A stretch of 60,212 nt of DNA from an uncultured Bacilli bacterium (GTDB lineage Bacteria > Bacillota_I > Bacilli_A > RF39 > UBA660). This document shows positions 11,133-44,653 of this stretch, one piece after another. Below the pieces are notes generated by a model, which was not told where the DNA came from, did not search any database, and was given only the letters and a program-made list of their open reading frames with translations. The translations under genes were made by a program, and so were the position numbers. The stretch is taken from positions 1 to 60,212 of the forward strand of contig CAJTUR010000004.1 of the NCBI GenBank assembly GCA_910579535.1. Direction: 5' to 3'. How positions within the stretch are numbered: position 1 is the stretch's first letter; each line of letters opens with the position of its first letter.

Positions 11133-11687
11133 ATGAAAAAGAATTATTTGTTAGCACATGGAAGTTTTGGCAGTCCTTTTGTTAATTGGTTGCCTTATTT
11201 AAGAAAAGAAATCGAAAGTAAAAATTTAGAAGTTTATACCCCAGACTTTCCAACAGGAGTAGGGAAACAAAATTATGAGAATTGGTCAAAACTATTAAAA
11301 ACGTACGTGGAAGCAAAGGTGTTAAATGAAAAGACAATAATAATAGCCCATTCCATTGCCCCAATCTTTATCTGTAAATTTTTAGTAGAAAATAAAATAA
11401 AAGTAAAGCGATTAGTTTTTGTTTGTGGTTTCAATAATTATCTGGGAATCGATAAAGAATACGATACAGTAAATGAAAGCATGTATTTTGATAATCTTAA
11501 CGAGATAAAAAATTATTGTGATGACATCGTTTGTTTTTATTCTGATAATGACCCTTACGTAAAATATGAAGCCGAAAAAAAATTTGCGGACACAATAACT
11601 AAAAATCAAATTTTGATTCGGGGGGGGGGTCATCTAAATTCAGAAAGTGGGTATACAGAATTTCCTGAATTACTAAAATATTTATAA
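11133..11687 (+). CDS. YdeN/RBBP9-family alpha/beta serine hydrolase
   Basis: 184 aa; LLAHGSFGSP, nucleophile elbow IIIAHSIAP, SDNDPYV and C-terminal GGGH. Contains the G10 tract. Confidence 0.7.
   Translation: MKKNYLLAHGSFGSPFVNWLPYLRKEIESKNLEVYTPDFPTGVGKQNYENWSKLLKTYVEAKVLNEKTIIIAHSIAPIFICKFLVENKIKVKRLVFVCGFNNYLGIDKEYDTVNESMYFDNLNEIKNYCDDIVCFYSDNDPYVKYEAEKKFADTITKNQILIRGGGHLNSESGYTEFPELLKYL
11620..11629 (+). repeat. G10 homopolymer inside the YdeN-family CDS
   Basis: cGG GGG GGG GGt encodes R-G-G-G immediately before the putative catalytic His. Confidence 0.95.
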
Positions 11688-40024: not shown

Positions 40025-41002
40025 CTAATTTTTTTCGCCTTCTTCTAACATGGTAGTAATAAAGATTCCATAACCCGTTTGAACTTTATCTACCACAACA
40101 TGAGTCACCGCTCCAATAATTTTATTATTTTGAATAATTGGGCTTCCACTCATTCCTTGCACGACTCCTCCTGTTTCTTTTAAAAGTTTTTCGTCAGTAA
40201 TTTCAAAAGAAATATTTTTAATTTTATTGTATTCATTAATTTTGGTAATATTAATTTCAAATTCTTCGACGACGTTATCCGATAAAACAGTTAAAATCGT
40301 TGCTTTTCCTATTTTTACTTCCTCTTTACTGGCCACTTCAAAGGTTTGACTATCAGGTAGATTCTTGGTGTATTTTCCAAAAAGACCAAATTCGGTGTTT
40401 TTATAAATGGTACCATAGACATCTTTCGGATTAAAATTAGCTTTCTTTTCTCCAGGTGTTCCATTCGTACTTTTATTAATCCCCGTAATGGTACTATTAA
40501 AAATGGTTCCTGTTTTGACTTCAATTTTTTTATTGGTATTTGCTTCAATAATCTCATGACCTAAAGAACCAAAAATTTTTGTTTCAGGGTCAATATACGT
40601 TAAGGTTCCAATACCAGTGATACTGTCTTTAACATATAAGCCTGTTTTATAAGTTTCATCTTGTTTGACAAGGGTTAAAGTCGATTTTTTTTCTTCATTG
40701 TTTCTTAGAATGGTTAAAGAAACACTTTCACCTTCCATATTCTCTTCAATCGCCTTCGTAAGTTCATTGATGGTTTCAACAGGAGTTTCATTGACTTTAA
40801 GAATTGAATCTCCCACTTGAATCGCTGGGTTACTTTGCACTAGTGTTCCATTAACTTTGTAAAAACCAACAACCAACACACCTTGACTATGAATATTAAT
40901 ACCAATGTTGTCTCCTCCAACAAGAATTCGATCGGAATACGCTAAGGCGACATTCGGAAATAAAAATAGTAAATTTAATAACAACATACTTATTTTTTTC
41001 AT
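40025..41002 (-). CDS. spoIVB: SpoIVB (S55) sporulation signalling serine peptidase
   Basis: Signal/anchor, PDZ (GDSILKVNETPVETINEL), GIGTLTYIDPETKIFGSLGHEI (His) and GMSGSPIIQNNKIIGAVTHV (Ser). Confidence 0.85.
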   Translation of the reverse strand: MKKISMLLLNLLFLFPNVALAYSDRILVGGDNIGINIHSQGVLVVGFYKVNGTLVQSNPAIQVGDSILKVNETPVETINELTKAIEENMEGESVSLTILRNNEEKKSTLTLVKQDETYKTGLYVKDSITGIGTLTYIDPETKIFGSLGHEIIEANTNKKIEVKTGTIFNSTITGINKSTNGTPGEKKANFNPKDVYGTIYKNTEFGLFGKYTKNLPDSQTFEVASKEEVKIGKATILTVLSDNVVEEFEINITKINEYNKIKNISFEITDEKLLKETGGVVQGMSGSPIIQNNKIIGAVTHVVVDKVQTGYGIFITTMLEEGEKN

Positions 41003-41149
41003 CTTTTCAACACCTCATGCTTAGTATATGAAGAAGCAAGTAAGAAATAAAAACAATAATTGGTAACAACCAAAAAATGGTAAAGATAGACGGACTATTT
41101 TTAATCAATGATAATAATTATCACCTAGACTATTATGCGATAGATAAGG

Positions 41150-41178
41150 TTGACAAAAAGTGTTGTTTTTACTATAAT
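41150..41178 (+). promoter_or_regulatory. consensus sigma-A promoter of the NTase-PHP bicistron
   Basis: TTGACA 41150-55, 17-nt spacer, TATAAT 41173-78; RBS AAAGGGGG 41196-41203. Confidence 0.7.
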
Positions 41179-41208
41179 ATTAGCAATTAAAATTAAAAGG
41201 GGGAAAAT

Positions 41209-42174
41209 ATGAACAAATTGATAGAAATATGTCGAGAAGCGGCACAGGCATCAACTGATTTTGAAATTACAAACGATGAATTAAAAAGAAAATATTTACT
41301 TTATAATATAAAACTATATAATTCAATTGTTAAAAAAGTAAAAGGAAATCGTGGCTCTTTTGGTACAGGTTATCCTTTTTATGCTTTGAATAAAAATTTA
41401 GAGGGAACATTACCAATTATTGATGAGCAACTTCAATATAATAATAAACTAATAAAATCTGTTGAAAAAACAGATAGAACGACTTGGACATGTGCTTATT
41501 GCTTAGCAAAATATGGAGAAAAAATGCCAGATTTAAAACAAGTGTGTAAGCCATGTTTATGGATGGAAGATGAACTAAAACCAAGGAAAGTCTTGAATAG
41601 ACTTCCAGATGTGGATATGTGGATGGTTTGTGATAATGAAAATGTTGAAACAGCTAAAAAAGAGTTAATTAAATTATTTGCTGAAAATAGCATTTCATCT
41701 TCTGATATTGATCCAGTTAAAACAATAGAGGATGTCATAGAAATCGTTCGCCAATTAAAGAGTGGGGGGGGGGTTATACCTACTAAAACTTTACCAATGG
41801 ATGCCCATATTATAGAATACGCGACTATTTATTCATTAATTGCCCAAGTTCCAGAAATTTTAAAAAAAGCCTCCAGTAATAGAGAAGTGCCTTATTTGCC
41901 TATACATCCTATATCTTATAGAAAAGACTGGCAGCATGATGATGAACCTTATAATTTTATTTATGACTTTCTTTCAGCTTTTACAGAATTTGATTTTGAT
42001 CCCGAATTAAAAAAATTGTTGGATAAAAGTCGAAATATGGTTGCAAACAGTTATACTTTTGAACAACTCTATACTTATCTCATCGCTTCCGCTCAAGAAT
42101 CAAATATAAGAAGATTCAGAACTTTGGAGCTAAAAGATAGATTTAAAGAAAGGATTGATTCATGGAAAAAGTAG
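41209..42174 (+). CDS. putative Pol-beta-superfamily nucleotidyltransferase with an inserted CxxC...CxxC zinc knuckle
   Basis: RGSFGTG (res 48-54), C95xxC98-x14-C113xxC116, LPDVDMWMV (D134, D136), LPMDAHII (D198), helical C-terminal ~120 aa. Motif-level call only. Confidence 0.45.
   Translation: MNKLIEICREAAQASTDFEITNDELKRKYLLYNIKLYNSIVKKVKGNRGSFGTGYPFYALNKNLEGTLPIIDEQLQYNNKLIKSVEKTDRTTWTCAYCLAKYGEKMPDLKQVCKPCLWMEDELKPRKVLNRLPDVDMWMVCDNENVETAKKELIKLFAENSISSSDIDPVKTIEDVIEIVRQLKSGGGVIPTKTLPMDAHIIEYATIYSLIAQVPEILKKASSNREVPYLPIHPISYRKDWQHDDEPYNFIYDFLSAFTEFDFDPELKKLLDKSRNMVANSYTFEQLYTYLIASAQESNIRRFRTLELKDRFKERIDSWKK
41764..41773 (+). repeat. G10 homopolymer inside the NTase-like CDS
   Basis: GGG GGG GGG Gtt encodes G186-G188 plus V, between the DxD motif and the third carboxylate. 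Confidence 0.95.
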
Positions 42175-43055
42175 ATTTACATATTCATTCAACACTGTCT
42201 GATGGAGTTTTAACACCAAAAGAAATTATCGACGAAGCTGTTAAAAATGGTGTAAGCGTTATTGCCATCGCGGATCATGATAGCATAGACGCTTATACTA
42301 AAGACTTTTATAATTATGCTAAAGAAAAGGGAATAAAAATAATAAATGCTGTGGAGATTTCTACTAAAACTGAAAAAGCGGGTATTCATGTTTTAGGATA
42401 TAATTTCAATATAGAGGATACTTCATTAAAAGAAAAATTAAATATTTTAAAAAATACTAGACACGAATATTTAAATAATGTTGCAAAAAAATTAAAAGAA
42501 TTAAATTATTTTTTAGAAATAAAAGAGTTAGAAAAAATTGAAGCTGTGACCAAAGCTCATATCGCTTTGAATGTTATTAATCATCCTAAAAATGCTGATT
42601 TATTATTAAAACAATTTGGTCATATTCCTAATAAAGGAGAATTTATTGAAACTATTATGAATGAAGGCTGTCCAGCTTATGTGAAAAAAAATACTATTAC
42701 TCCTCAAGAAGCCTCTAAAATTATAAAAGAAGCTGGAGGGAAAGTTGTATTAGCTCATCCAGTCGCTTACGAATATGAAGATAATTTGAGTGAAGAGACT
42801 ATAGCTAATTTAGTAACTGATATGAAAGCAGATGGAATCGAAGCTTATTATATTTATGTAGATAGAAATAATAATAAAATTGATGAAATTAAAAAATGGA
42901 AAAATTTTGCTGATCAAAATAAATTATTAGTTACCATAGGCTCAGATTTTCACAACGAAGATGGAATTCGACCTCAAATTGGCTTAATCAATGAAATATT
43001 AAATTTAAACGAAGAGACCATAAATAATATAATAGAAAAAATTTTAAATGAATAA
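42162..43055 (+). CDS. PHP-family metal-dependent phosphoesterase (TrpH/YciV-like)
   Basis: DLHIHSTLSDG, IAIADHD, NAVEIS, IHVLGY, LAHP, GSDFHN: all PHP metal ligands present. Overlaps the upstream ORF by 13 nt. Confidence 0.8.
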   Translation: MEKVDLHIHSTLSDGVLTPKEIIDEAVKNGVSVIAIADHDSIDAYTKDFYNYAKEKGIKIINAVEISTKTEKAGIHVLGYNFNIEDTSLKEKLNILKNTRHEYLNNVAKKLKELNYFLEIKELEKIEAVTKAHIALNVINHPKNADLLLKQFGHIPNKGEFIETIMNEGCPAYVKKNTITPQEASKIIKEAGGKVVLAHPVAYEYEDNLSEETIANLVTDMKADGIEAYYIYVDRNNNKIDEIKKWKNFADQNKLLVTIGSDFHNEDGIRPQIGLINEILNLNEETINNIIEKILNE

Positions 43056-43108
43056 TTAGGAGTCTTTTTAGCCGAATAGACTTTAAACGATTTCTTAGAA
43101 ATAAAAAA

Positions 43109-43137
43109 TTGACAAGAAACCGCATCTTTGATAGAAT
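43109..43137 (+). promoter_or_regulatory. consensus sigma-A promoter of the rplU operon
   Basis: TTGACA 43109-14, 17-nt spacer, TAGAAT 43132-37. Confidence 0.7.
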
Positions 43138-43139
43138 TA

Positions 43140-43222
43140 AACATGTTTAAAGGAGCTTTCCTTGAAACCGCTTGGAAAAGGTTAAAAAACAAGAGTTACC
43201 TTAACAGCGCGTCTTAATAATA
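43140..43222 (+). ncRNA. L21-leader-like 5' UTR
   Basis: About 85-nt structured leader between the promoter and the rplU RBS (hairpins AAGGA/TCCTT, AACC/GGTT). Bacillota carry an L21 leader at this position. Not checked against a model. Confidence 0.4.
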
Positions 43223-43230
43223 AAGGAGGT

Positions 43231-43539
43231 ATGAAAATGAAAGCTATATTCGAATCTGGTGGAAAACAATATTATGTAACCGAAGGCGACAGTATTTATG
43301 TTGAAAAATTAGCAACAGAAGCTGGAAGTGAAGTGGTATTTACAGATGTTTTATTTGTAGATGGTAAATGGGGAAATCCAACGGTTAATGGAGCTAAAAT
43401 AACCTGTACTGTTGAAAAACATGGTAAACAAAAGAAAATTGTTGTTTTCAAATACAAACCAAAAAAGAAATATCGTAACAAACAAGGTCATAGACAACCT
43501 TATACGAAACTTATTGTTAAAAAAATAGAAGTTAAATAA
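43231..43539 (+). CDS. rplU: 50S ribosomal protein L21
   Basis: [25 protein letters not shown]...; 102 aa. Confidence 0.95.
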
Positions 43540-44125: not shown

Positions 44126-44157
44126 AAAACCTATAAATTAAAAAACTTATAGGTTTT
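44126..44157. terminator. bidirectional terminator
   Basis: AAAACCTATAA 44126-36 / TTATAGGTTTT 44147-57. Overlaps the stop of the convergent ORF. Confidence 0.75.
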
Positions 44158-44653
44158 TATTTGCCTTCCTTTGTTTGTATTCTAGAATTAATCGATTAGT
44201 TTCTACTAAATTATCTTCATCAATAGAATCGAGCAATTCTTCAGCTAAAAATTTATTGGGAATGATAGAAGTCCTGCGTTCATAATAAGATTCTATACCA
44301 GTTGTATATCTTGCTTCAAGTAAAGTATTATCACACAAAGCATTTAAAACTCGCCCATAATTAGGATAAGATTTTATATAGTTTTGAGTAATTAAAGTAC
44401 ATTTGAATTCATTAATAATCTCTTCCAAGATAATCTCTCTTTTATTAAGCTTGGGTGGAGTGTTATTTTCGTATAAAAAATCACCATTTATTTCCTGAAT
44501 GAACTTTAAAGGAATTTCGCATATAGAAAAACCACATCTTGTAAAAAGCACGTTTTGTTTTATAAAAGAAGTTGAAGCTTCCATACGACAAAGTTCATGA
44601 AGCAAAGTGCAATATAAACAATATTTTTTTCCCTTACAATTAAACCTTTCCAT
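44147..44653 (-). CDS. hypothetical protein with Cys-rich N-terminus
   Basis: 168-aa ORF (MERFNCKGKKYCLYCTLLHELC...). Antisense to the ribosomal operon. No family recognised and no obvious RBS. Confidence 0.4.
   Translation of the reverse strand: MERFNCKGKKYCLYCTLLHELCRMEASTSFIKQNVLFTRCGFSICEIPLKFIQEINGDFLYENNTPPKLNKREIILEEIINEFKCTLITQNYIKSYPNYGRVLNALCDNTLLEARYTTGIESYYERRTSIIPNKFLAEELLDSIDEDNLVETNRLILEYKQRKANKNL

Follow-up and report, generated by a model that had tools for sequence, protein, structure and literature searches.

Nucleotidyltransferases (NTases) and phosphoesterases form a well-known couple. They meet in the CCA-adding enzyme that carries an HD domain and, as a transferase joined to an end-healing phosphoesterase, in Pnkp. 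RelA/SpoT and the toxic small alarmone synthetases with their small alarmone hydrolases (toxSAS-SAH) follow a make-and-break logic, where an NTase-like synthetase and a metal-dependent phosphohydrolase are encoded together. In toxSAS systems the synthetase side can be lost, the hydrolase side cannot. Bacterial PolX unites a Pol-beta NTase core and a PHP domain for work on phosphorylated ends (PMC2665239; PMC9226535). Here we describe a further couple, found in 60,212 nucleotides (nt) of DNA from an uncultured Bacilli bacterium (contig CAJTUR010000004.1 of assembly GCA_910579535.1), a stretch that we name the window. It consists of two open reading frames (ORFs) on the plus strand. ORF1 (41209-42174, 321 residues) founds an unnamed family, probably of divergent Pol-beta-type NTases with a zinc-ribbon insertion, as judged from the ORF call, its homologues, an AlphaFold model and weak Foldseek matches. 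ORF2 (42162-43055, 297 residues) is a PHP phosphoesterase of the TrpH/YciV type, that of RNase AM and of 3′,5′-bisphosphate nucleotidases, and it belongs to a dedicated partner subfamily, as Pfam, Protein Data Bank (PDB) and partner scores indicate. We regard ORF1 as a new enzyme family within a conserved add-and-remove module. The data show the structure of the two genes, their linkage, the conservation of the family, the homology of ORF2 and the polymorphism between strains; from these we infer the fold, the chemistry, the class of substrate and a physical complex of the two proteins. That the pair acts as two enzymes adding to, and removing from, a phosphorylated nucleotide or short oligonucleotide is the reading that we favour, with a probability of about 0.4. 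Our literature searches returned no description of the family or of the pairing; as far as they show, neither this group of proteins, nor the zinc ribbon inserted in it, nor its obligate link to a single PHP subfamily has been described.

The partner is the better understood half. TrpH-type enzymes hydrolyse 3′-phosphoadenosine 5′-phosphate (pAp) and 5′-phosphorylated oligonucleotides of 2-5 nt, working 5′ to 3′, and in RNase AM a phosphate-binding arginine and a base-stacking phenylalanine have been described (PMC11528712). They are also reported to degrade diribonucleotides and to remove flavin adenine dinucleotide caps (PMC11528712; PMC7261194; PMC9410882), and RNase AM to carry out the 5′-end maturation of 5S, 16S and 23S rRNA (PMC7261194). 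ORF2 resembles these enzymes (RNase AM of E. coli, V. cholerae and P. aeruginosa; Cv1693) over its full length. It matches the Pfam PHP model (PF02811, E 1.5e-13), and its residues 2-266, insertion lobe included, align with 2yb1 (Cv1693), 7ug9 (E. coli RNase AM), 9etk and 3e0f at E 1e-17 to 1e-21, identity to the solved TrpH-type members being about 25-30%. The metal-ligand motifs can be read directly (H7, H9, D14, H39, E65, H76, H199, D262 and H264) and align with those of 9etk and 2yb1; the preliminary description of this DNA, made from the sequence alone, had seen every PHP metal ligand and a likeness to TrpH/YciV (RNase AM), and this is borne out. An arginine of the lobe, R100, is kept in all six partner PHP proteins compared. 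A GxFIE motif, which lies near the phosphate-binding arginine and base-stacking phenylalanine described for RNase AM (PMC11528712), is kept in five of them, the sixth (L087) having leucine for phenylalanine. Scores against the NCBIfam models stay far from the equivalog cut-offs: 153 bits for bisphosphate nucleotidase (cut-off 400) and 137 for RNase RNM (cut-off 375). Judged from its sequence, ORF2 is a TrpH/YciV family member in a distinct subfamily, and by NCBIfam score it is an ortholog neither of RNase AM nor of the bisphosphate nucleotidase. There is a further difference: the known enzymes stand alone, whereas the subfamily of ORF2 travels with ORF1.

The strength of this association was measured in sets of loci gathered through conserved peptide patterns, each scan listing at most 80 loci. 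A PHP gene lies directly downstream of ORF1 in 80 of the 80 species-representative genomes listed, in 73 of 74 informative metagenome loci, and in eight of ten distant homologues (22-30% identity) that were looked up singly, that is, in 161 of 164 informative loci altogether. The neighbourhood check proposed in the preliminary description shows that a PHP gene comes next after ORF1 in nearly every case. Among 79 species loci, overlapping reading frames occur in 47; in 24 more the genes lie within 30 nt of each other, and in one they are separated by another gene; the commonest overlap, seen in 30 of these loci, is 13 nt. Against ORF2, the partner PHP proteins of distant loci reach 160-240 bits and solved TrpH enzymes 66-81 bits, and the pairwise identities of ORF1 and of its partner co-vary (r = 0.66, 2415 pairs), with means across species of 48% for ORF1 and 62% for the PHP protein. 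The partner is therefore a dedicated subfamily, inherited together with ORF1. As an aside, the sole informative metagenome locus without a PHP gene (L160:3998-5359) has an ORF1 that keeps the family sequence up to about residue 290, where an unrelated tail of 160 residues takes over; this replaced C-terminus may reflect either a rearrangement or a chimera made in assembly.

ORF1 itself has no name to go by. It matched nothing in Pfam, NCBIfam, PADLOC, PHROGs or the sequences of the PDB; a Pfam search of ten distant homologues gave nothing useful, and cluster look-ups of distant homologues returned no names. Searching the PDB with the single sequence and with two family profiles yielded only zinc-ribbon-like matches (E 0.2-3). 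A kinship with MAR1 ribonuclease was considered and dropped, the match covering only 39 residues at E 0.36. In a set of 5.8 billion proteins, 527 relatives were retrieved, and not one of them bears a Pfam domain or a name that indicates function. Clustering at 50% identity leaves no more than 159 groups among 1.84 billion representative proteins, so that the family is compact and narrow in its taxonomic range. It is also acidic, with a median isoelectric point (pI) of 5.5. That the protein lies outside any named family had been anticipated, and profile, sequence, defence and phage-family searches all came back empty.

What the family conserves was established with 208 full-length homologues that span about 17-96% identity; 73 are less than 30% identical to the protein of the window. 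D134, P56, P125, C113 and C116 are kept in all 208; C95, C98 and R126 in 207; G54, D198 and W241 in 206; D136 and D253 in 205; H200, E73 and D166 in 204. W93 (200), K124 (197) and G52 (192) follow. These residues delineate five features of the plus strand. A glycine loop, G49-S-F-G52-T-G54-Y-P56-F-Y58 (41353-41382), comes after a strand predicted at 47-53. A zinc ribbon, W93-x-C95-x2-C98-x14-C113-x2-C116 (41485-41556), lies between helix 72-87 and the next strand; it is supported by the alignment and by weak profile matches. K124-P125-R126 (41578-41586) stands directly ahead of that strand. D134-V-D136 (41608-41616), a candidate metal-binding DxD motif, opens the strand predicted at 135-141, and D198-A-H200 (41800-41808), a candidate third carboxylate with a histidine, that predicted at 197-203. 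The preliminary description had pointed to RGSFGTG, DVD, MDAHII and the four cysteines (C95, C98, C113 and C116, nt 41491-41556), as well as to a tract of ten G; all are present, and the conservation test that it suggested leaves the three acidic residues and the four cysteines invariant or nearly so. The sequence motifs are more than chance because these residues are so strictly kept among the 208 homologues. One detail had to be corrected. The G49-S50 pair, taken as the signature of the loop, is found to vary (G49 in 180 homologues, S50 in only 89), and it is G52-x-G54-x-P56 that is conserved instead.

The arrangement of these motifs is what brings Pol-beta-type NTases to mind. An AlphaFold2 model built on a 38-sequence alignment has a mean predicted local distance difference test (pLDDT) of 93.8 and a predicted template modelling score of 0.91; the trimmed core (residues 22-264) has a pLDDT of 89.7. 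The predicted elements run H24-41, E47-53, H72-87, E135-141, H143-159, (H169-184), E197-203 and H204-224 (H, helix; E, strand), with the zinc ribbon (93-116) and KPR (124-126) between helix 72-87 and strand 135-141. In the model this alpha-beta-alpha-beta-alpha-beta order is compatible with the Pol-beta NTase core, which carries three acidic residues on adjacent strands (PMC9226535). Those residues of ORF1 that look catalytic are placed where predicted beta strands begin. The second strand begins with a [DE]h[DE]h pattern, as P-D134-V-D136-M-W-M-V at 135-141; the third presents the third carboxylate in an h[DE]h context, M-D198-A-H-I-I at 197-203. Where an hG[GS] site would stand, ORF1 shows its conserved G52-[T/L/V]-G54-x-P56 loop, 18 residues before the next helix. 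About half of the top 50 Foldseek matches are Pol-beta-type NTases from at least six families, all non-significant; over both PDB lists these weak matches include CdnD, DncV, AAD(9)/AadA/ANT(3″)(9), terminal deoxynucleotidyltransferase (TdT), the minimal NTase 2rff, SpoT, a small alarmone synthetase and GLD-2. We consider it probable that ORF1 has a Pol-beta-type NTase fold, in a protein that is distant from all structures solved so far.

The best Foldseek neighbours, weak as they are, are the ANT(9)/AadA enzymes and the CD-NTases CdnD and DncV. ORF1 shares with them an N-terminal helix, an alpha/beta core with DxD and a later aspartate, and a C-terminal helical bundle; the spacing of 62 residues between D136 and D198 resembles that of DncV. 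It differs from them by some 45-50 extra residues, zinc ribbon included, between the glycine loop and DxD, by GxGxP in place of the G-S dipeptide, and by the lack of a significant score, of a CBASS effector gene and of a resistance-gene context. The preliminary description had proposed, as one of three readings, a signal-nucleotide pair in the manner of CBASS and its SMODS enzymes. This is not supported, there being no effector gene, no match to CD-NTase or SMODS profiles or to PADLOC, and no mobile or defence-island context.

How might such a pair work? ORF1 would be an active, very divergent enzyme of the Pol-beta NTase fold. D134/D136 and D198, with H200, would bind a pair of divalent metal ions, the G52-x-G54-x-P56 loop would grip a nucleoside triphosphate (NTP) by its triphosphate, and the four-cysteine ribbon together with K124-P-R126 would position the acceptor. 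A nucleotidyl group could then be moved from the NTP to a hydroxyl of a small acceptor, be it a nucleotide or an RNA of a few nucleotides. ORF2, with its complete metal site, would hydrolyse the product of ORF1, or the modified end, from the 5′-phosphate side. Overlapping translation would fix the ratio of the two proteins, which probably form a complex. The module is chromosomal and vertically inherited and, in the species of the window, slippage in the G tract could turn ORF1 off while ORF2 stays. A preference for small substrates is suggested by the acidity of the family, by the kind of NTases among its neighbours and by the substrates of TrpH enzymes; the weak structural neighbours of ORF1 are indeed NTases that act on nucleotides or small molecules. 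We also count in favour of this add-and-remove module the strict conservation of the residues that look catalytic, the linkage, overlap and co-variation of the two genes, and the asymmetry of gene loss described below, ORF1 being broken in many assemblies of the window species and the PHP members listed being full length. A bolder version may be worth stating, doubtful as we hold it to be: the pair could be synthetase and hydrolase of a new nucleotide-derived signal or growth-control molecule, or writer and eraser of a new RNA-end mark, common to reduced-genome gut Bacilli and Patescibacteria and switched by poly-G in at least one mouse-gut species.

Several observations weigh against the add-and-remove module. 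No significant match linked ORF1 to any NTase profile or structure in Pfam, Foldseek or hhalign searches. Foldseek found nothing at or below E 0.001 with the full model against the PDB and BFVD or with core 22-264 against the PDB, the best E value being 0.13, and TM-scores against the PDB are only 0.2-0.3. Aligned by hhalign to AadA1 (the sequence used is 100% identical to plasmid records), the ORF1 family profile reached a non-significant probability of 0.8%; the sole aligned stretch, equally non-significant, lays LKPR..LPDVDMWMV of ORF1 on GLKPH-SDIDLLVTV, with DxD on D47-I-D49. The superfamily membership claimed in the preliminary description is weakly supported: the acidic residues are conserved and the weak Foldseek list is rich in NTases, and no search is significant. 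Nor is the canonical G-S dipeptide conserved in the family. Two distant homologues (L081:1353-2381; L084:7037-8659) have no PHP gene next to them. A strong constitutive promoter that yields synthase and hydrolase at the same time would, in the absence of regulation, drive a futile cycle, and the surroundings of the pair contain no conserved gene for a sensor, a receptor or an effector. Finally, the zinc ribbon could equally serve long RNA.

A confident model without any significant structural neighbour in the PDB or BFVD, in a protein without a profile match, leads to the thought that ORF1 is not a transferase at all. It might represent a new metal- and zinc-binding fold that targets or regulates the PHP nuclease as its subunit, or that is itself a hydrolase; a set made of D, D, D and H can serve hydrolysis too, and the protein co-occurs strictly with a nuclease-type partner. 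Yet a DxD at the start of a strand, a third aspartate about 62 residues further at the next strand and a glycine-rich loop ahead of both make the classical arrangement of Pol-beta NTases, and what dominates the weak Foldseek list is not hydrolases but NTases, drawn from several unrelated families. We consider this explanation unlikely.

The ribbon raises another question, that of long RNA. The PDB search with the family profile found only RanBP2-type zinc ribbons, which align with the W-x-C-x2-C...C-x2-C insert (E 0.7-3). Some ribbons of this type bind single-stranded RNA. It could be, then, that ORF1 adds untemplated 3′ nucleotides to long RNA (tRNA or rRNA), or tags it, and that ORF2 trims or heals 5′ ends like RNase AM, with a logic like that of the CCA-adding enzyme and its HD domain; the RNA 3′-tailing and trimming module of the preliminary description is a reading of this kind. 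The homology of ORF2 to RNase AM, a 5′-end maturase of rRNA (PMC7261194), points this way, as does the weak likeness of the zinc ribbon to RanBP2-type ribbons. Translation genes often adjoin the pair as well, those of L21 and L27 here and those of leucyl-, arginyl- or valyl-tRNA synthetase elsewhere; but these are the commonest genes in reduced genomes, hence the neighbourhood argument is weak. The family is acidic, moreover, with the ribbon as its only recognisable RNA-binding domain, and ORF1 is dispensable in the window species. A role in the maturation or repair of RNA ends seems to us rather unlikely.

PolX deserves separate treatment, as it combines the same two superfamilies. A split, highly diverged analogue of PolX had been among the readings of the preliminary description; ORF1 would then fill gaps in DNA and the PHP protein clean DNA ends. 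In PolX a PHP domain and the Pol-beta NTase core form one fusion protein (PMC2665239); TdT is among the weak Foldseek matches of ORF1, and a gene for endonuclease IV or for a UvrD-type helicase lies nearby in a few loci. The pair consists of two genes and not of a fusion, and its PHP protein comes from another branch: ORF2 is of the TrpH type, and the NCBIfam PolX model covers only its N-terminal residues 3-40, with 22 bits for a cut-off of 426. ORF1, an acidic protein without a Pfam match, lacks recognisable DNA-binding subdomains, whether helix-hairpin-helix, 8-kDa, fingers or thumb. The suggestion is not supported and we hold it to be highly improbable.

Variation between strains offers another view of the pair. 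ORF1 contains an in-frame tract of ten G (G10; 41764-41773, plus strand), at codons G186-G188, and sequence comparison shows that its length is polymorphic. Four assemblies (L096-L099, one metagenome-assembled genome of NCBI and three independent sequencing runs) have G9 for G10, which splits ORF1 into 201 and 125 residues. This is the only indel that separates them from the window across 2 kb at 98.6% identity, and the same G9 frameshift is found in a second allele background (P0302 vs P0305 proteins). These are the attributes of a candidate phase-variable gene: a homopolymer within the coding frame varies in length from strain to strain and thereby shifts that frame. The contingency-locus flavour lent to the tract in the preliminary description agrees with the variation in its length. 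A relative that is 92.6% identical (L002) has an interrupted tract, GGGGTAGGGG (L002:6192-6210). At L002:5900-6010, corresponding to about 41100-41565 of the window, some 470 nt are missing, which removes the promoter of ORF1 and codons 1-119; its PHP gene is intact and without a consensus promoter. The idea that this truncated ORF1 is an assembly artefact was dropped, matching proteins of 185-193 residues being present on 25 other contigs. In the 90%-identity cluster of ORF1, intact proteins of 321 residues coexist with broken forms on long contigs (201 + 125 residues; 185-193 residues, 5′-truncated), and the PHP cluster members listed are all full length (6/6). No comparable tract was seen in the ORF1 genes of 79 other species, 78 of which carry a full-length ORF1, and a pattern scan of metagenomes for variants of the poly-G tract gave no match. 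Because 78 of the 79 other species keep ORF1 whole, none of the 79 has a comparable tract and broken alleles occur in the window species, ORF1 is under purifying selection across the family and dispensable, prone to switching, in this species; the PHP gene is retained. The natural on (G10) and off (G9, 5′-deleted) alleles within one mouse-gut species make a ready genetic contrast for the study of function. We note that the window, with a guanine-plus-cytosine (GC) content of 29%, holds a second G10 tract at 11620-11629, in frame within an ORF of 184 residues (11133-11687), where it encodes RGGGH.

Asymmetric loss would also suit a toxin and its antidote. ORF1 might be a growth-arresting NTase, either acting on tRNA like MenT or AbiEii or making an alarmone like toxSAS, while the PHP protein would reverse its effect or destroy its product. 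Only ORF1 is ever inactivated and the PHP gene is always kept, the bicistron is compact and overlapping, and flanking genes vary between species. To this is added a zeta/PezT-type kinase, mostly preceded by a protein of about 77 residues, directly upstream of ORF1: the arrangement occurs in 12 of 80 genome loci (L008, L015, L016, L018, L025, L038, L039, L051, L052, L060 and L061 carry the kinase upstream) and in about 26 metagenome loci, and at L080:3504-4391 the kinase sits between ORF1 and the PHP gene. Against an antidote or defence system speak the absence of phage, plasmid or viral-contig copies, of any PADLOC match and of any toxin-family match, the housekeeping neighbours in the 12-kb species loci, the high conservation (mean identities of 48% and 62%) and co-divergence of the two proteins, their narrow taxonomic range and an ORF1 that is intact in 78 of 79 species representatives. 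We judge it distinctly unlikely. Compared with RelA/SpoT and toxSAS-SAH, the hydrolase of our pair is a PHP and not an HD protein, there is no sequence relationship, and SpoT and small alarmone synthetases appear only as faint Foldseek matches.

The kinase, absent from the window, matches PF06414 (E 2e-29) and scores 67 bits against the zeta toxin 1gvn. It diverges in step with ORF1, and the loci that bear it are as diverse in their ORF1 sequence as the whole family. Together with the protein of about 77 residues, it could form a toxin-antitoxin pair that resides at these loci, or else contribute a third component to the function. A P-loop kinase joining the pair in a subset of species recalls the CCA-adding enzyme and Pnkp, but there the domains are non-homologous throughout, and the kinase found here is of the zeta-toxin type with a small partner of its own. 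An idea of cofactor salvage, prompted by the kinase and by the link to pAp, falls within the confidence that we leave to none of the readings set out here. In one locus (L008:351-1229) the kinase-ORF1-PHP operon is preceded by another PHP-like ORF and another, 28%-identical zeta-like kinase.

As for the hosts, close homologues of ORF1 come from metagenome-assembled genomes of low-GC uncultured gut Bacilli of human, mouse, rabbit, goat and chicken. A distant branch has a GC content of 30-51% and lies beside genes for type IV pilin, the arginine-deiminase pathway, aminoacyl-tRNA synthetases and GroES/EL; one relative of its partner PHP protein is labelled Patescibacteria. On this thin evidence, gene content and a single label, we infer that the branch stems from Patescibacteria. 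Of the two distant homologues that lack a neighbouring PHP gene, the first has a Fic-domain gene after it, and the other faces a convergent recJ (DHH-DHHA1) and lies near a gene for a CCA-adding enzyme. In the 12-kb species loci the flanks of the pair are housekeeping genes, which differ between species. A third universally conserved gene was sought at the pair and none was found, the PHP gene being the only conserved neighbour. The pair is chromosomal: tblastn against 50,697 phage and 72,556 plasmid records, and a scan of a viral-contig collection, revealed no copies. The bacteria of both host groups have small genomes, depend on a host and are difficult to grow in culture. The family is undescribed in databases, has a confident model without significant structural neighbour and an invariant candidate active site, and has been tied for an apparently very long time to one branch of RNase AM-like phosphoesterases. 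A conserved nucleotide-handling module specific to these bacteria could lead to a signalling molecule not seen before, or to a step still missing from their metabolism of RNA or nucleotides.

It remains to describe the layout of the locus in the window, where all features of the pair lie on the plus strand. A sigma-70-type promoter, TTGACA (41150-41155), 17 nt, TATAAT (41173-41178), is the sole match to all 12 consensus positions within 40900-43400. The ribosome-binding site of ORF1, AAAGGGGG (41196-41203), stands 5 nt upstream of the ATG at 41209; that of ORF2, GAAAGGA (42148-42154), lies within the 3′ end of ORF1. The ORFs overlap by 13 nt (42162-42174), which suggests translational coupling. 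The gene upstream, on the minus strand, combines PDZ and Peptidase_S55 domains (SpoIVB type), and those downstream encode L21, Prp and L27 (rplU-ysxB-rpmA). Promoter, ribosome-binding site and overlap, as well as the position between spoIVB and the rplU operon, had all been read correctly in the preliminary description. The rplU operon has a promoter of its own at 43109-43137, near-consensus (TTGACA, 17 nt, TAGAAT) with an extended TG, and an L21 leader precedes rplU at 43156-43224, with 35.9 bits, just below its gathering score (36). Having its own promoter, the pair forms a separate unit; a search 3′ of ORF2 revealed no intrinsic terminator, and some transcription may read through from the pair into rplU. 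Further on, between rpmA and trmB, a minus-strand ORF of 168 residues (44147-44653) has a cysteine-rich N-terminus and no Pfam match, and its counterpart in L002 is 83% identical.

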